Source of the DNA: a virus
Length of the DNA stretch: 35,336 nucleotides
Virus record (IMG/VR): IMGVR_UViG_3300040771_000227
Direction: 5' to 3' (one strand)
Shown here one piece after another: positions 1,423 to 35,336 of this stretch. Position numbers and translations under genes: made by a program. The notes beneath the pieces are model-generated. The model was given only the letters and a program-made list of their open reading frames with translations. It was not told the origin of the DNA and ran no database searches. Each line of letters starts with the position of its first letter. Within the stretch, counting starts at the first letter, position 1.

Positions 1423-3900
1423 ATGGCAAAAAAACCTATTGATATATTAAAAACGTATTTTGAAACCGGCGACGTACCAACACAAGTACAATTTTCGGAC
1501 CTTATAGACAGTTTTTTCCATAAAGACAGCGGAATAAACATCGAAAACGTTGCTGGACTTTCTGAAGCTTTGCAAGAACTTGAAAACCTTCAAATAGGCG
1601 ACATTGAAGGTCTTCAGCTAGCGCTTAGTAATTTAGCGAATATTGAAATAACCGACGTTTCAGGTTTACAATACGCTTTAAATCAACTAACTACTAGACA
1701 AATTTCCGACATTACAGGGCTTACCGAAGCTTTACAGGATTTTAATAATAGGATTTCAGACATACAAAATAACTTCGTACAAAAAGACGGTGCAAAAGTG
1801 CTTTCTGAAATTAATTATAGCGTTTCAGAAAAAGAAAAAGTTGACGGCGCTTTACAAAAAGACGGCTTTATAGGTTCCGCAAGAACCTTAGACGACAAAA
1901 TTAACGCCTTGGTTATCGCTGATTATGCCAAAATTGTTTACTTCAATACCTTAGAACCTGAAGACGCGACGATTTTCGACATAGTGAACCCGCCGTTATT
2001 AAATGACAACGAATTGACTTTTGACGACGGGAATTTATATATAAGCGCTGTCGATTTGTTAACGTGGGTATTTAATTCGAATACAGGAAACTATGAAACA
2101 AAAACTGTTATAAACGGCGGTTCAAATTTCGTTTTTGAAGGCAGTACGACCGACGCGACAAACGATAAGGCGGCCGATATTTCAAGGACGGGACGAATAG
2201 CGGCGGGACTTGCTACGTTAGGCGGTCACTTGGTCAATATGACTTGGATTTTATCAAACTTTTTTTCTTACGTTCCGGCGAAAGCAACGGCGCTTGTCGA
2301 TACTGACGTTTTGGTTATAGGCGACAGCGCCGACGCTCTAAAGACAAAGACTAGAACTTTCGCGCAAATAAAAGCGACTTTAAAGACTTATTTTGATACG
2401 CTTTATATAACTGCAAATATAAACTCAAGCAATTTTACTAAAAACTTGTCAGTAACCGACAACACTTTGCAAAAAGTAGCTAACAAGGTCGACGCGCTTA
2501 ATTTAGGGGCGGAATCGACAGCACCAACAGTTTCGGCAATTTATGCAGATATTGCTTCAATGATAGCGGCGCGAAGTTCTCAGTCGCCGAACGCTTTTTA
2601 CAAAGTAGACGACGCCAGCGCCGACCCTACGATCACAAGCGGAAAAGCCGTTTATCAATATTTAGGAACAACGTCCGGCACGCTAAATGACTATGACCTT
2701 ATTTGGAAATTAGATGGAAATGTAGTTTCCGGTGAAAACTTACCAACTGAAGGACTTGATTCCGGATTATATTTTAGAGTAGACAAAAACAACAGGCGCT
2801 TGCTAATGCAGTACAACGGCGCCGAATGGGACCCGATAAGGTCTTTTGGTGAAATGAAAATATGGGTTAGTACTTTAGGACAAGATAATATAAATTTTGG
2901 TGATGGTTCTGGTATTAAAGCATTTAGAACAATAGTCTTTGCGGTTAAACAAATTCCGCCGCAATATTACGGTGATGTTACTGTAATAGTGCAAGCGGGT
3001 ACTTATAATGAATCAGTTTATGTAAACGGGAAAAACCCCGTTGGTGATTTTAAAATAAAATTTAAAGGCGAATATTCTTCAATAACCGGAACCATAACAG
3101 CAATTACAAGGGACACGACAACCGGAAGAATTACAATTACAGACAGTTCAAAATCTTTTGCAGGTAGCGCGCAAAAAAATAATTTTTTACACATTACAAA
3201 CGGAATAAATAACGGGTGTATAATGCCAATTATTCAAAACACGACGAATCAAATGACATGCCCGTTTGAAGAATGGTCTTACAGAAAAGATTCTTTTTCT
3301 AGTACTCAAAATATTTTGTTTGGCGTTTGTTCAGTAGGAAATACTTATGAAATAATGACGCCAACTACACTTATAAACGGGTTTATTTTTTCAAAAGGAA
3401 CTTTAATAAGTATTGAAACAATGAGGTTTACAAGTTCTTCAATTGCGGCAAATTATGGGGCTTTCATAGGGAATGCAATGCAGTTTAATGTATTAGGAAA
3501 CGCAGATTCGAGATTTCAAGCTCAAAATGGGGCCTCGATGGCTTTAAATAGCTGCTCGTTGTGGAGTGATTCGCCCCTTACTTCTTGGGTATTATTTCAA
3601 GTTAATGCCTCTAATTTTGATATGGTTTCATGTAGTTTGACGCCGAACACAAATTTTTCAAACGGTGCGCTTTTATATTGGTTAGGATCTACGGGCGTAA
3701 TTCAAGGAACTACATTATTGGGAAAAATAGAGATTGCGACTAATTCAAGTGTTGGTTTTGGATGGAGTCCGTCGACGACTTCAACAATCACAACGACGGT
3801 TGTTAGGTCTTCAGCGGTGGCACAGAGATTAATGACTGTGCAAACAATAGGAACAAAAACAATTGAATCTTCGTCTTTTGGGGTAGGAACAACTGAATAA
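1423..3900 (+). CDS. Tail fibre / tailspike with N-terminal tandem repeats and a C-terminal right-handed beta-helix (depolymerase-like) domain
   Basis: 825 aa. The N-terminus has FETGDVPTQVQFSDLIDS followed by four I-x-[DN]-[IV]-x-G-L-x-x-A-L repeats (aa 38-117). The C-terminal half starts with WVSTLGQDNINFGDGSGIKAFRTIVFAVKQIPP..DVTVIVQAGTYNESVYV, the usual entry motif of pectin-lyase-fold domains, followed by Asn/Ser/Thr/Gly-rich strands. Confidence 0.7.
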   Translation: MAKKPIDILKTYFETGDVPTQVQFSDLIDSFFHKDSGINIENVAGLSEALQELENLQIGDIEGLQLALSNLANIEITDVSGLQYALNQLTTRQISDITGLTEALQDFNNRISDIQNNFVQKDGAKVLSEINYSVSEKEKVDGALQKDGFIGSARTLDDKINALVIADYAKIVYFNTLEPEDATIFDIVNPPLLNDNELTFDDGNLYISAVDLLTWVFNSNTGNYETKTVINGGSNFVFEGSTTDATNDKAADISRTGRIAAGLATLGGHLVNMTWILSNFFSYVPAKATALVDTDVLVIGDSADALKTKTRTFAQIKATLKTYFDTLYITANINSSNFTKNLSVTDNTLQKVANKVDALNLGAESTAPTVSAIYADIASMIAARSSQSPNAFYKVDDASADPTITSGKAVYQYLGTTSGTLNDYDLIWKLDGNVVSGENLPTEGLDSGLYFRVDKNNRRLLMQYNGAEWDPIRSFGEMKIWVSTLGQDNINFGDGSGIKAFRTIVFAVKQIPPQYYGDVTVIVQAGTYNESVYVNGKNPVGDFKIKFKGEYSSITGTITAITRDTTTGRITITDSSKSFAGSAQKNNFLHITNGINNGCIMPIIQNTTNQMTCPFEEWSYRKDSFSSTQNILFGVCSVGNTYEIMTPTTLINGFIFSKGTLISIETMRFTSSSIAANYGAFIGNAMQFNVLGNADSRFQAQNGASMALNSCSLWSDSPLTSWVLFQVNASNFDMVSCSLTPNTNFSNGALLYWLGSTGVIQGTTLLGKIEIATNSSVGFGWSPSTTSTITTTVVRSSAVAQRLMTVQTIGTKTIESSSFGVGTTE

Positions 3901-8365: not shown

Positions 8366-8551
8366 TCATGAAGTTTTACTTCTTTTATATTTTGCATGTC
8401 TTATTAAAATTTTAAGTCTTTCGATTTCTTTTGATAATTTATAGTAACTTTCGACGCAAGCGACAAAAGGCAAAAGGTCCAAATATAAACGGCGCTGAAT
8501 AATTATTTCTTCAAGCGCCGTTTCTTGTTTTTTAGTCAACACTTTCTTCAA
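8366..8551 (-). CDS. Hypothetical protein
   Basis: 61-aa ORF whose start overlaps the 3' end of the upstream ATPase gene by 20 nt. No motif. Confidence 0.4.
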   Translation of the reverse strand: MKKVLTKKQETALEEIIIQRRLYLDLLPFVACVESYYKLSKEIERLKILIRHAKYKRSKTS

Positions 8552-9797
8552 TTTCTATTTTTAGGGCGCCAGCTTCGCGGTCCACAAGTTCAACAAATAG
8601 TTCGATTCCTTCAGCGCCGGACCATTTTTGGACTTTTTCGAAATTTTCTTTATCAATCAGTGAAGCGTCTATTTTTAGAATTTTAACTTCGTTAAGCAAA
8701 GAAGCGCCAATTTTTAAACCGGCTATTAATTGCGAAGCCGTATTTATTTGCGTTTTATCAAAAGGCAATCCATTAAAAAGGAAACATTCGTTTTCGACGT
8801 CATAAGATAATCCTTCAATTACGATCTTTTCAGAAATAATAAGCGCTTTTGCGTCCTTTTGCGCCTCAATTCCTTCGCTTGCTTCTTGAATACTGTTTTG
8901 TAGCTTTTCAATCGCTTCGTCGGCCTGTTTGAAAGCCTTAGCTTCATTTATACGCTTGTTAATTGATTCACTATTAACAAAAGCCGTTTCTTTTTCCTGA
9001 AGGCTAACGTTTGGAATTGGCTTGTTTTTTTCGTCGTCAAGCCAAGTATAACCGTCTTTAACTTCGGCTTCAATTGTCGCGACCTGAAGAAGCTTCGCTT
9101 CTATTTCGGATTTTAGCGTTTTAACAGTGATTTCACGCGTAGCGATTCCGTCCGTCACTTGTTGCCAAGAAGCCGACTTAATTCGTTCCGCTTCGGTTAG
9201 AACTGCGATTTCTTTGGCCAGCGCTACAACGTCGACAAGTTCTTTTTCGGCGTCTTCAGAATTAAAAAAACCGGTCAAGGTTTGAAATTCGACAAGCTTT
9301 TTCTTGTCAAATTTTCGGCTGTCAGTAAGTTCTTCAATTTGTTGGTTTTGTTCGCAAACATCGACGCCGGTAATTTTACAAAAATACTCAACTTGCTTCG
9401 CGTCCGACATTTTAAAAAAGTCGTTAACGTCAAAGTCAATAACGCCGATACGTTCGTTTAACCATGTTCTGGGCGCCTTTACAAACTTGTCTTTTTCGTC
9501 GACAGCGTTTAAGTTTTCGATTTCGAATTGTATCGGAGTTTTACCGACAGCCAATTTCGTTCGTACTATATAACCGTCAGAAAGTTCGACTTCAATAAGA
9601 CCTTTTTTGGCGCCTGTTGTCACCGGTTTCGGCGGTACGTTCTTACCGGTCAAAGCAAGCCAAACGGCGTCGATAAAAGACGTTTTTCCGCTAGCGTTTC
9701 GGCCTGTCAAATAGACGTCGTTTCCAAGAACTTCGCCTTCGTAAGATTTTAAACCTTTGAAATTCTGTATTTTAATTCTTTTAATTTGGGTTTCCAT
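8532..9797 (-). CDS. SMC/SbcC/RecF-like P-loop ATPase (AAA_23-type)
   Basis: The N-terminus IKIQNFKGLKS...LTGRNASGKTSFIDAVWLALTG is the SMC-type Walker A. It has a long central coiled-coil and a C-terminal hydrophobic-D Walker B-like ILKIDAS. Confidence 0.65.
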   Translation of the reverse strand: METQIKRIKIQNFKGLKSYEGEVLGNDVYLTGRNASGKTSFIDAVWLALTGKNVPPKPVTTGAKKGLIEVELSDGYIVRTKLAVGKTPIQFEIENLNAVDEKDKFVKAPRTWLNERIGVIDFDVNDFFKMSDAKQVEYFCKITGVDVCEQNQQIEELTDSRKFDKKKLVEFQTLTGFFNSEDAEKELVDVVALAKEIAVLTEAERIKSASWQQVTDGIATREITVKTLKSEIEAKLLQVATIEAEVKDGYTWLDDEKNKPIPNVSLQEKETAFVNSESINKRINEAKAFKQADEAIEKLQNSIQEASEGIEAQKDAKALIISEKIVIEGLSYDVENECFLFNGLPFDKTQINTASQLIAGLKIGASLLNEVKILKIDASLIDKENFEKVQKWSGAEGIELFVELVDREAGALKIEIEESVD

Positions 9798-11222: not shown

Positions 11223-11420
11223 ATGGAAAATTTACTTTATTTCGGTCTATTTTGGATTTTGACCGGCGCCGGAAATTACTTGGTTTTTTTAATAGAATTA
11301 AAAGTAAAAGGCTTGAATTGTTCTAAAAAATTTAAAAGAAAATATTTTAAACTGTCTTTAGCGCTTGGATTTTCAGGCCTTATTTTGTCGGCTTACCTTT
11401 TAATTTTCCCTAAAAAATGA
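11223..11420 (+). CDS. Small two-pass membrane protein (hypothetical)
   Basis: 65 aa from the internal Met58 of track ORF 11052..11420. Two hydrophobic helices (LLYFGLFWILTGAGNYLVFLI; LSLALGFSGLILSAYLLIF). The stop overlaps the helicase start (ATGA). Confidence 0.5.
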   Translation: MENLLYFGLFWILTGAGNYLVFLIELKVKGLNCSKKFKRKYFKLSLALGFSGLILSAYLLIFPKK

Positions 11421-12901
11421 ATTTAAGACCGTACCAAAACGAAGCCAAAACGCAAATTCGCGCCAGCTTCACAAGTGGGAGTTTATCCGTTGTTCTTTGT
11501 TCGCCGACCGGTTCCGGTAAAACAGTGACTTTCGCCGATATAGCACGCGAAAGCGTCGATAATGGTTTTGTCGTAATGATTGCAGTCGACAGAACCGAAC
11601 TATTGGACCAAGCCAAGAAAAAGCTTATTGAATACGGCCTTAATCCGGCGGTTATTACGGCCGGTAAAACAATGAAACGAAACGCGTCTTGTTATGTCGC
11701 TACGGTACAAACATTGAAAAGGCGCGTTTTTCCTGAAATAAACCTTCTTATTATTGATGAATGTCACAAGCAAATATTCGATCCTGTAATAAAGATTTAC
11801 AAGGAAGCTGGCGTTTTTGTAATTGGCGCGACCGCGACACCGATCAGAACCGGAAAAATGACGCAATTAAGCGATATTTATGACGAAATAGTAGAAACGA
11901 TCACAATAGGCGACTTAATTCAAAAAGCTTTTTTAGTTCCAGCGGTGACATATTCCGTCAAAATGGACGCTTCGAAATTAGCTATAAAAGGGAACGAATA
12001 CGACAACAAGCAAATGTTCGACATGTTCGACAAAAAGAACCTTTATGACGGCGTAATTGAAAAATACAATCAATTCACACCGAATACTAAAGCGATTTGT
12101 TTCAATGTAAACGTCGAGCATTCCAAGAACGTAACGCGCGCCTTCAATGAAGCCGGAATTTCAGCGATTCATGTTGACGGGACAACACCGAAGAAGAACC
12201 GCGAAGACATTTTTAAGGCTTTTAAGGCTGGGCAATTTACAGTACTTTGTAATGTCGATATTGCGACGACAGGCTTCGACGAATGGACAATTGAAACGGT
12301 AATAGTTAACCGCGTGACGCTTTCGCTGTCTCTTTGGCTTCAAATGGGCGGACGAGGTTCGCGAATTACGCCTTCGGAACTTGTCGGCGTTTCCGGTTAT
12401 TTACAAAAGGAACATTTTAACCTTTTAGACATGGGCGGGAATGTTTACAAACTTGGCTTTTGGGAACAAGAACGAGTTTGGAATTTGTCGCACAAGACAA
12501 ACGATAAGGCCGGCGTTGCACCGGTCAAAGAATGTCCTGAAGAACGTTTTGACGAAAATCTAAAAAACGGCTGCGGCTGCATTATTCCAGCGCCGGCGCC
12601 AACTTGTAAATATTGCGGTTTTGTTTTTCCAAAAGAAGAAAAAAAATTTGCTGAAGGCGAATTTATAGAGGTTCAAAATTACAACCTTTTGCCGCCGGAA
12701 ATTGTCGGCCAAGCTTGGGGCGCGTTGTCCTTGGAACAGCTGGAACAAGTCAGAACTATAAAAGGTTATAAACTAGGCTGGATTATAAAACAAATTGCAA
12801 TTAATAAAGACTTAACGCTTTTGGAATACGCTAAGTTTAGAGACTTTAAGGCGCCGGCTATGTGGGTCGAAAGAATGGAAAAAATGTATAATTTAAACTA
12901 A
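11417..12901 (+). CDS. Superfamily 2 DNA helicase (DEAD/DEAH-box type) with C-terminal zinc ribbon
   Basis: LRPYQ (Q motif), CSPTGSGKT (motif I), LLIIDECH (motif II), GATATP (motif III), QMGGRGSR (motif VI). C-terminal Cys cluster CPEE...GCGC...CKYCG. Confidence 0.85.
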   Translation: MNLRPYQNEAKTQIRASFTSGSLSVVLCSPTGSGKTVTFADIARESVDNGFVVMIAVDRTELLDQAKKKLIEYGLNPAVITAGKTMKRNASCYVATVQTLKRRVFPEINLLIIDECHKQIFDPVIKIYKEAGVFVIGATATPIRTGKMTQLSDIYDEIVETITIGDLIQKAFLVPAVTYSVKMDASKLAIKGNEYDNKQMFDMFDKKNLYDGVIEKYNQFTPNTKAICFNVNVEHSKNVTRAFNEAGISAIHVDGTTPKKNREDIFKAFKAGQFTVLCNVDIATTGFDEWTIETVIVNRVTLSLSLWLQMGGRGSRITPSELVGVSGYLQKEHFNLLDMGGNVYKLGFWEQERVWNLSHKTNDKAGVAPVKECPEERFDENLKNGCGCIIPAPAPTCKYCGFVFPKEEKKFAEGEFIEVQNYNLLPPEIVGQAWGALSLEQLEQVRTIKGYKLGWIIKQIAINKDLTLLEYAKFRDFKAPAMWVERMEKMYNLN

Positions 12902-13227: not shown

Positions 13228-13968
13228 ATGAAAATATTAAACAATATAAAAATCGAAACCGTTCTTTTCTTGGATATTGAAACGGCCCCAAATTGGTTAA
13301 ATTTAGAAGACGCGCCGGCGTCAATTGCAAGCGAATGGATTTATAAATTCAAGTTCAGAAACGACGCGCCAGCGGAACCAAAAACCGGCGAAGCTATTCC
13401 GGTTTATTATTCTGAACTTTGGCAAAAAGAAGCCGGCCTTTTTCCTGAATTTTCGCGAATAGTTTGTATTTCGGCTGGATTCATGTACAAAGGTGATTTT
13501 TTACTACGATCTTACTTTGATCAAAACGAAGGCGCTCTTTTAACCAAATTTAAAGCGGACCTTGAAAGTTTTTGTATTGCGATTCCTTTGGCGAAGCTTT
13601 GCGCGCACTTTGGTAAAGGTTTTGATTTTCCGGTTATAGCTAAAAGAATGCTAATAAATAGAATAGTAATACCGAACATTTTAGACACGGCCGGCCTTAA
13701 ACCTTGGGAAAACTCAAACCTTGACACTCACGAAATTTGGAAACTTGGCGGAACAACTTCGGCCGGACTGCCAGCGATTTGCATGGCTTTTGGAATTGAT
13801 ACGCCAAAAAGCGACTTAAACGGTTCTTTAGTATCTAAAGCATTTGCTGAAGGTGAACTTCGCCGAATTGCTGACTATTGTGAAGAAGACGTTTTTGCTT
13901 TGCTGAATGTATTCAAAGCGTTCAGAATGGAAGAACCGGTAAGGCGTGAAAAATTAATTCAACACTAA
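13228..13968 (+). CDS. 3'-5' exonuclease, RNase H-like fold (PolB-exonuclease-related, DNA_pol_B_exo2-like)
   Basis: Exo I FLDIETAP, Exo II-like HFGKGFDFPVI, Exo III DYCEEDVFAL. Size and motif order fit stand-alone PolB-exo-like proteins. Confidence 0.65.
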   Translation: MKILNNIKIETVLFLDIETAPNWLNLEDAPASIASEWIYKFKFRNDAPAEPKTGEAIPVYYSELWQKEAGLFPEFSRIVCISAGFMYKGDFLLRSYFDQNEGALLTKFKADLESFCIAIPLAKLCAHFGKGFDFPVIAKRMLINRIVIPNILDTAGLKPWENSNLDTHEIWKLGGTTSAGLPAICMAFGIDTPKSDLNGSLVSKAFAEGELRRIADYCEEDVFALLNVFKAFRMEEPVRREKLIQH

Positions 13969-13973
13969 AAAAA

Positions 13974-14330
13974 ATGGAACCATTAAAACAAGCCGAAAAA
14001 AAGCCAATAAGCGTTTCGGATTTTATTTACCTTCAAGCTTTGGAATTCCAAGGCGAAAAAGGCGAACCGATATTTTTCGGCGAAATAAGCTTTTTTAAGG
14101 CAATAAAAAAAGGTAATTCGATAAAGGTATTCAAAACGCACCATAAAGCGCGCAAAATGGTTTTTTCTGGTAAATTAGAGACCGTAAAAGCTGACAAGAC
14201 AGTTTTACTTTCTTGTTTAAATTCTATTTTCGACAAGAAAAAGGCTTTTGAAGAACGAAAAACAGGCGCTTATTTTATTGAATCGTTTATTGTAGAAAAA
14301 TTTCTTGGTTATGGTTTTAAGTCAGAATAA
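13974..14330 (+). CDS. Hypothetical protein
   Basis: 118-aa ORF tightly packed in the operon. No motif. Confidence 0.55.
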   Translation: MEPLKQAEKKPISVSDFIYLQALEFQGEKGEPIFFGEISFFKAIKKGNSIKVFKTHHKARKMVFSGKLETVKADKTVLLSCLNSIFDKKKAFEERKTGAYFIESFIVEKFLGYGFKSE

Positions 14331-14703
14331 AAAGGACGCCGGCCGTTCCTGTTGTGCTATCGCTTGCAAAAATAAACCGGTCGCAAAATTGGCCGGTTTA
14401 TGTTATAAACATTATGAACGCAAAAGAAAAAAAACGGACCCGATAGGCGCACGGTTCCAACAGTTCAAAACGAACGCCAAAAAACGAAATATTGACTTTT
14501 CAGTTACAAGAAAAGAATTTCAAATGTTTTGCGAAAAGAACGGTTATTTGATCATAAAAGGCCGGCGCGGTCAAAACGCTACAATCGACCGGCTTTGCAA
14601 TATTCACGGATATCACATTTGGAACATGGGAATTAAAACCAACAGGCAAAACGCCAGCAAAGGGAACCGTTTCAGCGGCGAAAACTTCGACTGTCCTTTT
14701 TAG
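14305..14703 (+). CDS. HNH-family endonuclease-like / zinc-knuckle DNA-binding protein (putative)
   Basis: The N-terminal CCAIACKNKPVAKLAGLCYKHYERKRK resembles the Cys knuckle (C..C...A..GLC..HY.R) of phage HNH proteins. The C-terminal ATIDRLCNIHGYHIWNMGIKTNRQNASKG resembles the IDRI..GY..N......N..K core. Confidence 0.45.
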   Translation: MVMVLSQNKKDAGRSCCAIACKNKPVAKLAGLCYKHYERKRKKTDPIGARFQQFKTNAKKRNIDFSVTRKEFQMFCEKNGYLIIKGRRGQNATIDRLCNIHGYHIWNMGIKTNRQNASKGNRFSGENFDCPF

Positions 14704-15484: not shown

Positions 15485-15639
15485 AAAATAATAAAAGAAC
15501 CTACATTTTTAACGGCGTTAATTATCAATTGAAAGCAAAACTTACATTTTACGATAAAATAATGATCTTAACAGGCTTTATTTTTCTTTTTGGCCTGTGG
15601 GTTTCCGGCTTCTTGTTATTGGCTTTTGCGTTATGGTAA
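15481..15639 (+). CDS. Small membrane protein (52 aa, TTG start), not in the ORF track
   Basis: The TTG overlaps the upstream TGA (cTTGAaa). It translates to LKNNKRTYIFNGVNYQLKAKLTFYDKIMILTGFIFLFGLWVSGFLLLAFALW with one TM. Its TAA overlaps the next ATG (ATGGTAA). An internal ATG (MILTGF..., 25 aa) is an alternative start. Confidence 0.35.
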   Translation: MKNNKRTYIFNGVNYQLKAKLTFYDKIMILTGFIFLFGLWVSGFLLLAFALW

Positions 15640-16520
15640 AATTTCAATTTTATCCAGCGCGCGTAAATTCTAAAAAACCAATTGGCGAAGTAACTCTTTT
15701 AGAATTCCTTAAAGCAAACCAAGACCCAAACGACGAAATAAAGGCCGTATTCGCACAAATAGCACAAGCTGAAGCCAACGGCGACCAAAAACAAAAAGCC
15801 TTCTTAAAACAGTCTTTTCTTTACTATTTTACGCCGTGCGTATGGACCGACGGCCAAGGGCGTTCGTATGATAACATTTTAAGTTTTACCGGCTTGGCAG
15901 TTCTTGACTTTGATCATATCGAAAACGCGAATGAATTCAAATATTTTATATTTAACTCTTTTCCGTCCGTTGTCGCTGGCTGGCTGTCACCTTCTAAAAA
16001 AGGCTGTAAATTTCTTGTAAAAATTCCGGTCGTTAAAACTGTCGACGAATTCAAGTCTTATTTTTACGGCCTTGGCTTGGAAATGGAAAACTTCAAAGGC
16101 TTCGACGGAACCGGCCAAAACGCAATTTTACCTTTATTCCTGTCGTACGACCCCGATTTATTATATAGGGAAAACGCCGAAACGTGGACCAAGCGCGGAA
16201 AAATGCTAAACGCCTTTGTCGCGTCTTCGGCGCCTTTGGTTCCGGTCCAAGTTGGTGAAGGCGACCAAGCGCGCGTTCAGCGAATTATAATTAAATTATT
16301 TGAAGCTATCGTTTCCGACGGACACCCGCAAGTTAGAAGCGCCGGCGTAACTTTGGGCGGCTATGTCGCCAGCGGTTACATGGACCAAGCCAGCGCCGAA
16401 AATTTTATTAATTCATTAATACAAAATAATTCATACCTTCGAAAAGGAATTTCAGGCTACCAAATCACCGCAAAAACAGCGATTCAAAAAGGAATGTTAT
16501 CGCAATTAACCCTTCAATAA
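15633..16520 (+). CDS. Primase-like protein, VirE N-terminal / BT4734-like domain
   Basis: The pattern FLKQSFLYYFTPCVWTDGQGRSYDNILSFTGLAVLDFDHIEN ... GWLSPSKKGCKFLVKIP fits the Bacteroidota VirE_N (BT4734-like) primase-polymerase-type domain. It directly precedes a VirE NTPase gene. The ATG at 15633 is preferred over the track's GTG at 15597. Confidence 0.55.
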   Translation: MVKFQFYPARVNSKKPIGEVTLLEFLKANQDPNDEIKAVFAQIAQAEANGDQKQKAFLKQSFLYYFTPCVWTDGQGRSYDNILSFTGLAVLDFDHIENANEFKYFIFNSFPSVVAGWLSPSKKGCKFLVKIPVVKTVDEFKSYFYGLGLEMENFKGFDGTGQNAILPLFLSYDPDLLYRENAETWTKRGKMLNAFVASSAPLVPVQVGEGDQARVQRIIIKLFEAIVSDGHPQVRSAGVTLGGYVASGYMDQASAENFINSLIQNNSYLRKGISGYQITAKTAIQKGMLSQLTLQ

Positions 16521-18020
16521 ATGAACAACAACAAAGAAGTAACAGCTGACGACTTTATAAAAGAAAATTTTATACATGACAAAAAATATGTTGAATTCGA
16601 CGAAACGCCTGAAGTACAACAGGCCCGAAATGACCAAGAAAAAGCAAGCTGGCGCGAAGTTTATAGTTTTGCACACGCTATAAATAAAGCCGGCCGTTCG
16701 TTCACCGAAACGGACGTAAAAAACCAATGCGAACGTTTTTATTTGTCATTCGAAAAAGTGCAATTAGTTTTTCAAAAAGTAGCGGAAAACAATCAGGACG
16801 AATTCGGAATTGAAGACAAGCCGGAAATTTTCAAAGTCGAAAATTTTCTTCGAAAAAATTGGGATTTTGTTCGAAACGAAGTAACGCAAAGAAGCGAATA
16901 CAGACTAAAGAATTCGACCAACGAATTCGAAAAATTAAACGTCGATAGCCTATACAGGAAACTGCAACATGTTCGTTTTACTTTTTCAATCGACAAAGTT
17001 AAGTCTTTGCTTCGGTCCGATTTTGTGAAGACTTACAACCCTTTTTTCGAGTATTTCGAAGCCTTGGAGCCGTGGAACCGCGAAGTTGATCATATAGGTA
17101 ATTTGGCCAATTATGTGACAACAACCGACCAAAATTTTCACGTTACGCAATTTCGGAAAATGCTCGTTCGTTGTATAGGGTGCGCGCTTTACGGCGTAGA
17201 AAATCGTTTCGTCTATGTTTTTGTAGGCGAAAAGCAAGAAAAAGGAAAAAGTACTTTTATTCGTTTTTTAAACCCGTTCGGCCGTAACTATTACACCGAA
17301 GCACCAATTAGAGACAATAAAGACACTTATTTTTCTTTTTCTGAAAACTTCATCTACAACCTTGAAGAACTTGCTTCGCTGTCTAATTTAGAGGTTAATC
17401 AATTGAAGTCTATTATTTCTATGACTACGATCAAAGAACGTAAGGCTTACGCCGTGGACGCCGAGGAACAACCAAGACGGACGAATTTTTTCGGTTCCAC
17501 TAATAAGAACGAATTTTTGACCGATACGGAAAACACGCGCTGGCTATGCGTTAACGTTGAAGACATAAATTGGAACTATAAAAAAGACGTTGACATTCAC
17601 GCCGTTTGGTCGCAAGCCTTCGCTTTATACCATGACGAGGAATATAACCAATTTTTAACCGCTGGCGAAATGAGCGTTCGCGACTTGCTGAATAAAAACT
17701 TCGAAGTTTCCGACCTTGAAAAAGATTTAATTAAGCAATGCTTTGAAATTGGCGACGAAAAAGGTTCTTTTTACTCTTTGCCTGACATTATTTCGACGCT
17801 AAGCGATAAATTTAACGGTAAGCCGCTTAATTCGCGCTTTATTGGCAAATCTATGGCCCAGCTTGGTTTTTTGGCTGGAATCCAGCGCGTAAATGGACAC
17901 AAGACGCGCGGCTATTGGGTGAACCTAAGAACGACGGCTTTATACGAAAACGGCGACGAAAAGACGCCTTTCGTCAAACCTGAAGTAAAAGAGGCGGAAC
18001 AAAAAGAATTTAAGTTTTAA
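16521..18020 (+). CDS. VirE-family P-loop NTPase (D5/primase-associated helicase-like)
   Basis: Walker A in VFVGEKQEKGKSTFIRFL, Walker B-like IYNLEEL, and an Arg-containing segment ERKAYAVDAEEQPRRTNFFGSTN. The layout is typical of virulence-associated E proteins. Confidence 0.75.
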   Translation: MNNNKEVTADDFIKENFIHDKKYVEFDETPEVQQARNDQEKASWREVYSFAHAINKAGRSFTETDVKNQCERFYLSFEKVQLVFQKVAENNQDEFGIEDKPEIFKVENFLRKNWDFVRNEVTQRSEYRLKNSTNEFEKLNVDSLYRKLQHVRFTFSIDKVKSLLRSDFVKTYNPFFEYFEALEPWNREVDHIGNLANYVTTTDQNFHVTQFRKMLVRCIGCALYGVENRFVYVFVGEKQEKGKSTFIRFLNPFGRNYYTEAPIRDNKDTYFSFSENFIYNLEELASLSNLEVNQLKSIISMTTIKERKAYAVDAEEQPRRTNFFGSTNKNEFLTDTENTRWLCVNVEDINWNYKKDVDIHAVWSQAFALYHDEEYNQFLTAGEMSVRDLLNKNFEVSDLEKDLIKQCFEIGDEKGSFYSLPDIISTLSDKFNGKPLNSRFIGKSMAQLGFLAGIQRVNGHKTRGYWVNLRTTALYENGDEKTPFVKPEVKEAEQKEFKF

Positions 18021-18025
18021 CCATG

Positions 18026-18295
18026 CGGAACAACAGAAACGCGTTTTGGAACATCACAAAAAAAGCTATTGTTCCAGCTGAAGCCAACGCTGGCGCTGGC
18101 TGGAACATGTGGAACATTAGGAACATCACTTTTCAAACATTTTCCAAGGACATGAAAACAACCATATTTAAATATACAAAAGTTTTAAGGAATTTGATGT
18201 TCCTATTGTTCCACCGGTCCGCAAGCCTTACCATTAAAGGGCTAAGGGTGGAACATCAAAAAAAATCCTGTTGTTCCATGATGTTCCACATGTTC
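18026..18295. repeat. Iteron array: 12 copies of GGAACA(T) in two opposed groups around an AT-rich palindrome (candidate origin of replication or pac site)
   Basis: GGAACA starts at 18026, 18047, 18101, 18110, 18119 and 18249. TGTTCC starts at 18069, 18197, 18206, 18271, 18281 and 18290. The palindrome ATATTTAAATAT is at 18163..18174. Confidence 0.75.
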
Positions 18296-18342
18296 CACTT
18301 TTGAAATGCCAAATTAAATAATAAAAAAAAAATAAAAACAAG

Positions 18343-19038
18343 ATGACAAATCCATTTATTGACAGTTCGGCCGTGGCCGGTGAATGCGAAAAAATAATTG
18401 AAAACCAAAAACAAACCGAAGGCCGTATTCAGTCCGAATGCTTCATTTGGTTTAATAATGAATTTCCAGCTTTGCGCGGTTTAATGTATCATGTACCAAA
18501 CGGCGGCTTAATGACAGGAGCAAAAGGAAACCAATTAAAAGCAATGGGCGTCGTTGCTGGCGTTCCTGATCTTGAATTTCATTTTTGGAAAAGAACCTTC
18601 TTTTTGGAATGTAAGACCCCGACAGGAACCGTTTCAAAAGACCAAATAAAAATTCATAATATTTTAGACGAACACGGTTTTAGGGTTTTTGTATTCAGGT
18701 CAAAAAAAGAGTTTCAAGACATTATTTATGCGATTATTGAAGACAAGTCGCCAATGTTTAAAAGAGGCTTAAAACGGGCCGAATTCGAATACAGAAACGG
18801 CGTTTTTAATTATCTTTACAACTTAGAAGAAGGAAACGTTCAAATGCTAGATGATTTAGTTACGCCGGAAAATTACGAACGTTTCAAAGGCTTGGTTATT
18901 GAATTTATAAACGAAGGTTTTGACAGTCTCGAAGGCTTCGAAATACTTTTTACGCCGGACTATTTAGGTTTCTATAAAAAAAGCCTTGAAAAAGAAACTG
19001 AAGTATTTTACAAAGGTTCAACAACAACAGAAATATAA
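18343..19038 (+). CDS. VRR-NUC domain nuclease with C-terminal extension
   Basis: ECFIWFNNEFP...HVPNGG...GVPDLEFHFWKRTFFLECKTPTGTVSKDQIKIHNILDEHGFRVFVFRS matches the VRR-NUC core (PD..E.K, Q). About 100 further residues have no recognised domain. Confidence 0.7.
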   Translation: MTNPFIDSSAVAGECEKIIENQKQTEGRIQSECFIWFNNEFPALRGLMYHVPNGGLMTGAKGNQLKAMGVVAGVPDLEFHFWKRTFFLECKTPTGTVSKDQIKIHNILDEHGFRVFVFRSKKEFQDIIYAIIEDKSPMFKRGLKRAEFEYRNGVFNYLYNLEEGNVQMLDDLVTPENYERFKGLVIEFINEGFDSLEGFEILFTPDYLGFYKKSLEKETEVFYKGSTTTEI

Positions 19039-19044
19039 ATAAAA

Positions 19045-19608
19045 ATGAAACAACCGAAACCCCGAAAAACAGACGAAAAGAAGGCCGAACGCTTGGCAGT
19101 TCGTGACGCTTCTTTGATTCCTTTTTCGATAATTGTTGAAGACAAAAAAGAAAACAAACCGACTGTTAAAAAGTCGGCTATTGAAAAGCAAAAAGATTTT
19201 ATTGAATTAATATTTTCAAAGAACCCCGTCGGCCGTCCAAGGCTTTATTCAACAGCCGAAGAACTTGAAGCCGAAATAACGAATTATTTTATTTATTGTT
19301 ATAGCAATTCTATAAAGCTGACTATTAGCGGTTTAGTTTTGTACTGCGGCTTTTCAGATAGAAAAAGTTTTTACGCTTATGAAGAAAACCGCGAATTTAG
19401 TCACATTATCAAGAAGGCGCGCGGGATAATAACGCTACATTACGAAAACCTTTTGACTGAAGCGTTCCCGCAAGGGGCGGTTTTTGCGCTCAAAAATTTA
19501 GGCTGGAACGCTGAAGAAAAAATTGAAAACACCGTAAAAACCAAAACGTCGTTTTATATTGGCGGCGACGAAATTGAAGACATAGATTATTATGGCGAAA
19601 ACGAATAA
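19045..19608 (+). CDS. terS: Terminase small subunit (GP3_package-like)
   Basis: GRPRLYSTAEELEAEITNYFIYC...KLTISGLVLYCGFSDRKSFYAYEENREFSHIIKKARGIITLHYENLL fits the DNA-packaging gp3-type small terminase. It overlaps the terL start. Confidence 0.65.
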   Translation: MKQPKPRKTDEKKAERLAVRDASLIPFSIIVEDKKENKPTVKKSAIEKQKDFIELIFSKNPVGRPRLYSTAEELEAEITNYFIYCYSNSIKLTISGLVLYCGFSDRKSFYAYEENREFSHIIKKARGIITLHYENLLTEAFPQGAVFALKNLGWNAEEKIENTVKTKTSFYIGGDEIEDIDYYGENE

Positions 19609-26564: not shown

Positions 26565-27074
26565 TTATTTAACTGCTTTTAAAGTTTTGTTTTCGATTAT
26601 TTTTTTATTTGTTAAAGCGTCTAAATTAACGTCATATTTTTCTTTGCGTTCAAGCGCCTTCACGTCATAACTATTTTCTATATTTTGCTTTAGCTTTTCT
26701 TTGTTGATTCTTACAACGTCCATTGTGTTCGTCTCTAAGGTGAAGCCATTCGGTTTCCAATTTACGCGCAAAATAACGAACCCGTTAATCATGTAAATTT
26801 GACGTTTAAAGCGATCATCTATTTTTGAAGTGACAGCTGAAGACTTTAGAAATACTTTTCCGCTTAAAACGTCTTCGGGGTTATAGCCGTTACGCTTTAA
26901 TTCGCTACGAATAGCGTTATTAATTAATTCAAGCGAATTCTGAACAAAAGCTATTGCTTGTTGTTCGACCGAAATAAGATCAGCGTAATTTTTTTTGGCT
27001 TTTTTAAAGTTTGCTAATTGGAACAACGGCGCGAACCCAAAACGCGCAAAAATAGAGTTAATAATATTTTTCAT
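26565..27074 (-). CDS. Hypothetical protein of the reverse-strand cassette (169 aa)
   Basis: The ATG at 27074 (MKNIINSIFARF...) overlaps the stop of the upstream 55-aa ORF (TAATG). No recognisable family. Confidence 0.6.
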   Translation of the reverse strand: MKNIINSIFARFGFAPLFQLANFKKAKKNYADLISVEQQAIAFVQNSLELINNAIRSELKRNGYNPEDVLSGKVFLKSSAVTSKIDDRFKRQIYMINGFVILRVNWKPNGFTLETNTMDVVRINKEKLKQNIENSYDVKALERKEKYDVNLDALTNKKIIENKTLKAVK

Positions 27075-34325: not shown

Positions 34326-35324
34326 ATGTTAAGACCTTGGATAAAAATTAAAATAGGAAACGAAGCGCTATCTTATGTGACGACCGGCGAAGTTTCTTCA
34401 ACTTGGAAAAAGTTCACCGATACGGCCGTTTTAACGATTCCTAAAAAAGTCGTTAAAGACGGTAAAACTATTTATATAGGAAACGAAAACGTATTTAAAA
34501 AAGGCGACTTTGTGACTATTTCAGTCGGTTATTTTCCAAAAATTGAACAAATTTTTGAGGGGTATTTAACTAAAATAACGCCAGCCGAAAACGTGACGCT
34601 TGAATTCGAAGACCCTTCTTGGATTTTAAAACAAACTAATTTAACAGTATCTTTTAAAAAAATAACACTCGAGGAACTGTTAGTAAAATGCATTGAAGAA
34701 GCGATTTCGAAGGCTTCGCCAGATATAAAAAAAGCGCTAAAATTAATCAAAATAGAAGCAATTAAAGCCGAATTTTTCGCCTTCAGGTTAACAAATGTTA
34801 ATATAGTTCAAGTCCTTGACGAACTAAAAAAGACCTATTCGCTGACCTCTTTTTTTAGGAATCAAACGCTTTTTGTTGGACTTGCTTATAATACAGGCGG
34901 AAAAAAGCACAAGTTCGAATTCGAAGAAAATATTATTTCGAACGACTTGGAATATAAAAAAGAAACTGACGTTCGAATGAAAGTTAAAGTTATTTCAATG
35001 CTGGAAAATAACAAAAAAATAGAAATTGAAGTAGGCGACAGCGACGGCGAACAAAGGACTATATTTGCTTATAACGTGACAGACTTAAAAGAGTTAAAAA
35101 GAATAGGCGAACGCGAAAAAGAGCGTCTAAAATACGAAGGTTATTTTGGAAGCTTTGACACGTTTATTCATTCGCTCGTTTCACACGGCGACGAAATCGA
35201 AATTGTAAATAAAAGACAGCCGGAACAAAACGGCCTTTATTACGCTGAAGAAGTGAAACCAAGGTTCGGAATTGACGGATTTTTTCAAACGATAACGCTT
35301 GGCGTAAAAATAAGCGCGAAATAA
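34326..35324 (+). CDS. Baseplate hub protein (P2 gpD / Mu gp44-like, putative)
   Basis: 332 aa between the tape-measure-proximal gene and the spike gene. Its stop overlaps the spike ATG across the circular junction. Confidence 0.45.
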   Translation: MLRPWIKIKIGNEALSYVTTGEVSSTWKKFTDTAVLTIPKKVVKDGKTIYIGNENVFKKGDFVTISVGYFPKIEQIFEGYLTKITPAENVTLEFEDPSWILKQTNLTVSFKKITLEELLVKCIEEAISKASPDIKKALKLIKIEAIKAEFFAFRLTNVNIVQVLDELKKTYSLTSFFRNQTLFVGLAYNTGGKKHKFEFEENIISNDLEYKKETDVRMKVKVISMLENNKKIEIEVGDSDGEQRTIFAYNVTDLKELKRIGEREKERLKYEGYFGSFDTFIHSLVSHGDEIEIVNKRQPEQNGLYYAEEVKPRFGIDGFFQTITLGVKISAK

Positions 35325-35336
35325 TGGAACTAAAAG
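35283..35336. repeat. Terminal direct repeat copy 2 (identical to 1..54)
   Basis: Read directly; 54/54 identical. Confidence 0.95.

Follow-up and report, generated by a model that had tools for sequence, protein, structure and literature searches.

The virus record IMGVR_UViG_3300040771_000227 comprises 35,336 nucleotides (nt), hereafter called the window. Its first 55 nt (1-55) recur at its end (35282-35336), and it is therefore a complete, circularly closed phage assembly of approximately 35,281 bp. At the DNA level, the window is approximately 71% identical to the Flavobacterium phages lotta8-1 and pippi8-1 (Winoviridae, Pippivirus), and approximately 68% identical to the Flavobacterium psychrophilum phage FPSV-S1. 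Here, we describe the gap at 18021-18342, which carries an array of short repeats (iterons). It lies between the stop codon of a VapE-type superfamily 3 (SF3) helicase gene (18020) and the start of a VRR-NUC gene (18343), with the small-terminase gene terS starting at 19045; these flanking genes are as the original prediction for this stretch had given them. The array sits exactly between the replication module and the packaging module, and the gap is most probably a phage replication origin of the Rep/ori type of staphylococcal pathogenicity islands (SaPIs), served by the adjacent VapE-type helicase and primase. The features of the locus are as follows:

15597..16520, + strand: candidate primase gene (Pfam PF08800, BT4734-like N-terminal domain, E 3e-9; PHROG primase/helicase matches)
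16521..18020, + strand: VapE-type SF3 helicase gene, putative initiator (Pfam VapE-like_dom, E 1e-30)
17715..17927, + strand: codons of the predicted C-terminal winged-helix domain (amino acids (aa) 399-469, from the secondary structure of models)
17996..18076, both strands: left iteron group; forward copies 17996 (within the helicase gene), 18027, and 18048; reverse copy 18070
18023..18304, + strand: spurious 93-aa open reading frame (ORF), ATG-initiated, the repeats read as codons
18083..18100, no strand: block rich in G+C that separates the left group from the tandem forward copies; GGCGCGG partly conserved in the alignment
18102..18125, + strand: three forward iterons at 9-bp spacing; 18111 and 18120 conserved, 18102 peculiar to the window phage
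18127..18196, no strand: central spacer of 70 bp, 74% A+T, containing the palindrome ATATTTAAATAT; putative duplex-opening site
18198..18212, - strand: reverse iteron pair, 9 bp apart and opposed to the forward tandem; invariant in five phages
18224..18243, no strand: conserved non-iteron block AAGCCTTACCATTAAAGGGC, approximately 70-80% conserved in five phages
18250..18296, both strands: right iteron group; forward copy 18250; reverse copies 18272, 18282, and 18291

The iterons, present in both orientations, share the consensus gTGGAACAt(c)a and span 8 to 9 bp around a GGAACA core. Within the gap, GGAACA starts at 18027, 18048, 18102, 18111, 18120, and 18250 on the + strand, while TGTTCC, marking the copies on the - strand, starts at 18070, 18198, 18207, 18272, 18282, and 18291. 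The first of these begins 7 bp after the helicase stop codon, and a 13th copy of GGAACA is found at 17996, within the 3' end of the helicase gene. The original prediction had reported the same 12 copies, six per strand, with every start given 1 base too low. Approximately 0.1 copies would be expected in 18027-18296, where 12 were found. Over the whole 35-kb window there are 39 copies, compared with 13.2 +/- 3.7 in dinucleotide shuffles. Thirteen of them fall within 300 bp, and when 39 sites were placed at random, no cluster exceeded 6 in 20,000 trials. An unbiased scan of all hexamers returned the gap as the top non-homopolymer cluster of the window. Clustering of the motif is particular to the gap, which holds the only cluster found in the genome. 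A tandem elsewhere, TGGAACAGCTGGAACAA at 12732-12748 (copies at 12733 and 12742, 9-bp spacing), was considered as a second iteron site resembling crr of phage P4 and was rejected: it represents LEQLEQ codons in the ResIII/DEAD helicase gene, is missing from relatives, and is a coincidence.

The arrangement of the copies is equally regular. The forward triplet at 9-bp spacing (18102/18111/18120) and the reverse triplet at 10/9-bp spacing (18272/18282/18291) were recovered as they had been proposed, and an additional reverse pair lies at a 9-bp distance (18198/18207). The forward triplet faces this pair across 70 bp of 74% A+T, and the two facing tandems (the forward 18102-18125 region and reverse 18198-18212) form arms of 20 nt that are 95% complementary and 66 nt apart. 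To either side lies an inverted pair of 30 nt, made up of copies 18048 and 18070 around an A7 spacer on the left (18047-18076), and of copies 18250 and 18272, likewise around an A-run spacer, on the right (18249-18278). The sequence ATATTTAAATAT in the central spacer is a perfect palindrome, as had been noted, but lies at 18164-18175, 1 base above the place first given, and is not conserved in relatives. Similarly, the AT-rich core that had been proposed is present but moderate, at 74% A+T versus 61% for the genome. No DnaA-box-like sequence was found in 17900-18400.

The array is conserved as DNA. An alignment of five phages was made from the window and four relatives encoding helicases with 80-84% identity to its own. 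Ten of the 12 iteron positions, including 18027, 18048, and 18070, are kept in the four relatives, while copy 18282 is variable among them. Invariant columns make up 78% of iteron positions (56/72) versus 29% of all other positions (61/208; Fisher p = 7e-13). Relative to these close relatives, the indels are nearly all of 1-2 nt and mostly not multiples of three, and the spacers drift. Two blocks outside the iterons are also retained to some extent (18224-18243 and 18083-18100). No covarying hairpin was found in either of them among the five phages, and a host-factor site or a priming site are among the possibilities for their role.

The same comparison bears on the ORF of 93 aa at 18023-18304, which had been suspected of being the repeats translated. 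The ORF is spurious, as the iterons are kept while the spacers drift with frame-breaking indels. Neither Pfam nor PHROG gave a match for it. In eight close relatives, the + strand open frames of the gap do not exceed 59 aa, and the 93-aa frame is kept in none of them. Judged by these sequence comparisons, the "protein" is an artefact. An ATG-initiated ORF does span the gap, and the inverted repeats could fold as RNA, giving weak miRNA-like hairpin matches in Rfam (E 0.03-0.8). We nevertheless assign next to no probability to a real 93-aa protein or a structured RNA at this place, since the frame is found in 0/8 close relatives, the Rfam matches lie far below gathering scores, and conservation is focused on hexamers in both orientations. 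A scan of 17500-18800 against Rfam for RNA families yielded only these sub-threshold hairpin matches, which are due to the inverted repeats.

The gene directly upstream of the array encodes a helicase of 499 aa, whose sole sequence match among all PDB chains is 7PDS (E 1e-7 with a single sequence, 6e-13 with a profile). This entry, labelled "similar to D. nodosus vapE", is Rep1 of SaPI1 bound to DNA. When an AlphaFold2 model of the helicase (predicted local distance difference test (pLDDT) 84) was searched with Foldseek, the top matches were again the chains of 7PDS (E 6e-16, approximately 420 aligned columns), with a target-normalised template modelling (TM) score of 0.62, covering nearly the whole Rep1 chain. 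The next matches were primase-helicases of NrS-1, African swine fever virus (ASFV), and poxvirus D5 type, as well as SaPI5 PriRep5. The helicase is a homolog of Rep1, and the models indicate that it carries a C-terminal winged-helix DNA-binding domain. This domain, at aa 399-469, is predicted as helix-strand-helix-helix-hairpin with a pLDDT of 83-87; a candidate recognition helix lies at aa 438-447, and the predicted wing hairpin, at aa 451-469, includes R456 and G459. Modelled alone, the domain gave its best fold matches to RFX DNA-binding domains (TM 0.62-0.74). Other winged-helix proteins were also among the matches, including the P4 origin-binding domain (1KA8), which matched weakly (TM 0.43). 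The winged helix of RFX proteins such as RFX1 reads the DNA major groove with its wing.

Arrays of this kind are not confined to the closest relatives of the window. Loci encoding related helicases (numbered L below) were gathered from IMG/VR, metagenomes, GenBank phages, and assemblies; a scan of genome contigs for prophage or island relatives gave one short contig only. In the complete genomes of lotta8-1 and FPSV-S1, the unbiased scan placed the top non-homopolymer hexamer cluster at the same syntenic gap as in the window. The gap of FPSV-S1 (GGTTACAC) carries the motif GTGTAAC/GGTTACA instead of GGAACA. Across the collection, the hexamer with the strongest clustering in the whole locus begins at most 45 bp from the helicase stop in 34/57 rows, and in 29/50 after duplicate removal, where less than 1 would be expected by chance (distinct loci of 2-10 kb each, with helicases 30-84% identical to that of the window). 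In most of the remaining loci, the array is found further downstream. The motif varies by clade, with at least nine types: TGGAACA, TAGAACA, GGGACAT, GGTTACA, GGTAACAGG, GTCAACA, TAGACA, TGACCA (a clade that includes the Cellulophaga phages phi12:1 and phi18:1), AGGTAA, TAGTAA, and ACTACA, with GGTAACA also listed; a 3' ACA is common to several of these. What is constant is the architecture, with copies in both orientations and an AT-rich or (TA)n core whose sequence is not conserved. The array center is modestly AT-rich in the window and strongly so in relatives.

The genes downstream of helicase and array vary, and include terS directly, VRR-NUC, a DnaA_C-like protein, a Toprim primase, and relaxases. 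Among the fused primase-helicases of the clade with 46-48% identity, a small protein with the DnaA C-terminal helix-turn-helix is encoded downstream, detected by Pfam in L014 (6569-7535) and L015 (5664-6610), and by similarity to the L014 protein in L025 (5918-6358) and L028 (5712-6176). L014 and L015 carry TAGACA iterons with an AT-rich core, followed directly by the DnaA_C-like gene and then an HNH endonuclease gene. L016 (6317-7252) encodes a protein with DUF7666 and pentapeptide repeats, whose gene contains 16 tandem DNA repeats that outscore the iterons in the cluster scan.

In every case, the array is placed between the replication genes and the module that follows them, so that its position alone cannot separate an origin from a packaging (pac) site or an operator. 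We therefore compared which neighboring protein the repeats follow. The primase, helicase, and VRR-NUC of L011 are 63-66% identical to those of the window, and the iterons are the same GGAACA; its terS and terL, however, are unrelated to those of the window (BLASTP E 0.58 and 0.12). The same holds for L110, with a helicase 64% identical to that of the window, GGAACA iterons, and an unrelated terminase with an Sf6-type terS. Arrays are also present immediately behind the helicase gene at distant loci that have no terminase at all. In L046 and L037-L042, genes for a Toprim primase and a relaxase come next, while L058, L064, and L067 encode Mob relaxases. In Cellulophaga phages, the array lies more than 2 kb upstream of terS. 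Of the other candidate binders, the primase was rejected as the specificity determinant, as that of FPSV-S1 is 63% like the window's, equal to the primases of phages with the same motif, yet its iteron differs. VRR-NUC was rejected since it is missing from L016, L018, and L019, which still carry arrays, and the small early proteins gave no DNA-binding family matches. The terminase swap, the terminase-free loci, the distance to terS, and the comparisons of primase and VRR-NUC together indicate that the repeats travel with the helicase. The unrelated terminase module of phages L011 (5605-7416) and L110 (5054-6485) consists of a divergent or Sf6-type terS and a 439-aa terL, and its boundary falls right after VRR-NUC.

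These comparisons also weigh on the pac site that the original prediction had offered as an alternative. In that case, the small terminase would bind the repeats and the first packaging cut would be made at the gap, as at the pac site of phage P1, where clustered short repeats are known to flank the cut site. The proximity of terS, which starts 0.75 kb downstream of the array and directly after it in L016, L018, and L019, would fit this function. We consider it very improbable, however, given that the iterons persist next to unrelated terS and terL genes and in elements without terminase, lie far from terS in the Cellulophaga phages, contain no GATC, and co-vary with the C-terminal domain of the helicase.

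This co-variation is centered on the wing. All phages with TGGAACA iterons have R456 and G459 in the wing (..QR-V/I-NG-HKTRGY..). In L109 (4013-4289; helicase 61% identical), the corresponding residues are Y456 and K459, and the array consists of 12 copies of TAGAACA. On this basis, an A at iteron base 2 was predicted for two proteins with Y456 before their DNA was inspected. For P0016 (L114, 3372-3664), in which Y456 and K459 are combined with the very recognition helix of the lotta8-1 clade, the iterons were indeed TAGAACA. For P0013 (L113, 1685-1960), with Y456 and G459, the prediction was borne out in part, as GGAAC and AGAAC copies are mixed, as if this locus were an intermediate. In the sequences compared, wing residues R456 and G459 track iteron base 2, and a determinant in the wing would agree with the way RFX1 reads DNA. 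The motif shifts with the helicase clade and is unchanged by the terminase swap; on this comparative basis, the array may be specific to its cognate Rep.

A third function that had been proposed for the repeats is that of an operator array controlling the packaging or late operon. A phage regulator, or the helicase acting as one, would bind the repeats and activate or repress the late operon of VRR-NUC, terS, and terL. The array is positioned exactly at the boundary of the replication and packaging modules, and where genes have been inserted after the helicase gene, it is located directly upstream of the next operon. In addition, no Bacteroidetes -7 box (TAnnTTTG) was found in the gap of ten relatives, nor at 18021-18342 itself, leaving the expression of the downstream operon unexplained. 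On the other hand, the arrays follow VapE helicase genes whatever is downstream, their motif tracks the helicase wing residues, and 10-13 sites in both orientations around an AT-rich core form the layout of an origin rather than an operator; the early proteins yielded no helix-turn-helix regulator. A purely regulatory array is thus improbable. We also considered a regulatory role in addition to origin function, in which the array would be both origin and switch for the VRR-NUC-terS-terL operon. This is suggested by the lack of a recognizable host-type promoter and by the array staying at the start of the operon despite insertions, and although still unlikely, it would have a clear consequence: the loading of the helicase, or the firing of the origin, would be what permits packaging and the expression of late genes.

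Extra genes seem to be inserted with particular frequency between helicase stop and array (L107 2938-3621, L023, L024, L036, and L105), with a DNA methylase inserted in Cellulophaga phage phi12:1 and small ORFs elsewhere. In L114, a hairpin of two inverted iterons (TAGAACGATACTATCGTTCTA) at 3005-3040 directly follows the helicase stop and is itself followed by a T9 run, so that iteron sequence seems to make up an intrinsic terminator. The main array of L114 lies 375 bp beyond this hairpin, past an inserted ORF of 91 aa.

Several observations weigh against a replication origin at the gap. The 74% A+T spacer is not the most AT-rich place of the genome, as the richest windows are found elsewhere, and the cumulative GC skew rises monotonically, without a turning point at the gap. 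The sequence homology of the helicase to Rep1 is confined to the ATPase core (approximately 15% identity), while homology of the C-terminal domain rests on predicted folds. The co-variation of wing and motif was seen in few lineages, with shared descent as a partial confounder; moreover, L032 and L034 have almost the same recognition helix and different repeats, so that no simple recognition code based on this helix was apparent. At least eight loci (L014, L015, L023, L024, L036, L105, L107, and L114) have genes between helicase and array, and in these the array is directly upstream of the next gene, as a regulatory element would be. Finally, a scan of the gap for sigma-70 promoters and intrinsic terminators found nothing, and the Bacteroidetes -33/-7 consensus was not found in the gap of ten relatives; the whole window contains a single full match to this consensus, at 26798.

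Weighing these points, an origin of the SaPI Rep/ori type remains the most probable account of the gap. An iteron origin beside primase and helicase genes was also the reading that the original prediction had put first. The helicase is an SF3 homolog of Rep1 with a predicted winged helix, and its gene is followed by 12 hexamer iterons, with facing copies around an AT-rich center, and conserved as DNA. We infer the steps of binding, melting, loading, and the start of replication as follows. The helicase (16521-18020) would be initiator and replicative helicase in one, with its C-terminal winged helix recognizing the 8-9-bp iteron gTGGAACAt, probably largely through the beta-hairpin wing. The iterons on either side of the 70-bp A+T-rich spacer point toward each other, so that hexamers would assemble on both sides. 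The spacer would be opened, and the helicase would load itself without a separate loader, after which the primase (15597-16520) would prime synthesis by the host polymerase. No DNA polymerase turned up among the window proteins scanned, and therefore the phage probably relies on that of its host. The BT4734-like N-terminal domain of the candidate primase represents an archaeo-eukaryotic primase clade. In more distant relatives, primase and helicase are fused into single proteins of 737-768 aa (L014-L019). The window further encodes a set of replication and recombination proteins upstream, comprising an AAA/SMC-like ATPase, a ResIII helicase, a PolB-exo-like 3'-5' exonuclease, and an endonuclease VII/HNH-like protein (8532-9797, 11417-12901, 13228-13968, and 14305-14703).

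Taken as such an origin, the gap would represent a known kind of system, but one that seems to be new for flavobacterial phages and has apparently not been recognized as a common feature of loci with VapE helicases. In the literature searched, we found no described origin for Winoviridae/Pippivirus-like Flavobacterium phages or for Cellulophaga Helsingorvirus, and for both groups the array and helicase now provide a concrete candidate for origin and initiator. One spurious gene call is removed from the annotation, and a rule for annotating related elements follows, namely to seek the top cluster of short repeats just after the gene for a VapE-type helicase. The SaPI Rep/ori architecture appears to reach lytic phages and mobilizable elements, in Bacteroidota and beyond. 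The diversity of motifs, with matched changes in the wing, provides a data set on the evolution of initiator specificity. In particular, the natural series in which one or two wing residues may re-specify one iteron base (R456/G459 with G, Y456/K459 with A) could yield a recognition code and orthogonal origins. A possible use would be in compatible replicons for flavobacterial genetics.

Several known systems share part of this layout. The SF3 initiator-helicases of simian virus 40 (SV40; large T antigen) and papillomaviruses (E1) assemble as two hexamers at short repeats in inverted pairs beside an AT-rich element. In these proteins, the domain that binds the origin precedes the helicase and is folded differently, and the window helicase has no homology to them outside the ATPase core. 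Iteron plasmids (RepA, pi, and TrfA type) and lambda ori use direct repeats of 17-22 bp, a dedicated Rep that is not a helicase, and usually DnaA boxes. In contrast, the iterons of the window are 8-9 bp long and occur in both orientations, without a DnaA box in 17900-18400, and no Rep of the iteron-plasmid type was found among the window proteins scanned. With P1 pac, the array has in common clustered hexamers on either side of a central region, near packaging genes. In P1, the hexamers contain GATC methylation sites and are situated within the gene for the small terminase, whereas those of the window have no GATC, lie outside terS (0.75 kb upstream), and are independent of the type of terminase. 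The alpha protein of phage P4 joins a primase, an SF3 helicase, and a C-terminal winged-helix origin-binding domain (1KA8), and acts on short octamer iterons that are both direct and inverted. P4 requires a second iteron region, crr, several kb away, while the window has one iteron cluster only. For ORF904 of the archaeal plasmid pRN1, the portion of the published description considered here reports a prim-pol and SF3 helicase with an essential cis sequence directly downstream of the gene (PMC4234260). Its primase is of another family, and a comparable iteron array is absent from that portion of the description.

The closest likeness is to the SaPIs. SaPI Reps are self-loading initiator-helicases whose C-terminal winged helix recognizes penta- or hexanucleotide iterons, 6-12 of which lie immediately downstream of the rep ORF, with at least two oppositely pointing iterons on each side of an AT-rich center (PMC9371898). 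In SaPI5, pri and rep are fused, and PriRep5 binds cognate iterons (PMC9371898). PriRep5 (7OLA) and Cch2 of SCCmec hold primase and SF3 helicase in one chain, like relatives L014-L019; the proteins of the window are separate, and PriRep5 gave a weaker fold match (E 4e-5). SaPI1 differs in being a staphylococcal satellite island, whereas the window is the genome of a lytic myovirus of Bacteroidota. Identity between the helicases is only approximately 15%, in the ATPase core only, and the window iterons, of 8-9 bp with a GGAACA core, are in part arranged in two 30-nt inverted pairs. SaPI1 Rep1/ori (7PDS) and the window nonetheless have in common a VapE-type SF3 helicase ending in a winged helix, which in the window is a predicted one, a primase encoded by its own gene upstream, and, after the rep stop codon, 6-12 short facing iterons around an AT-rich center, with an iteron sequence that varies between related elements.

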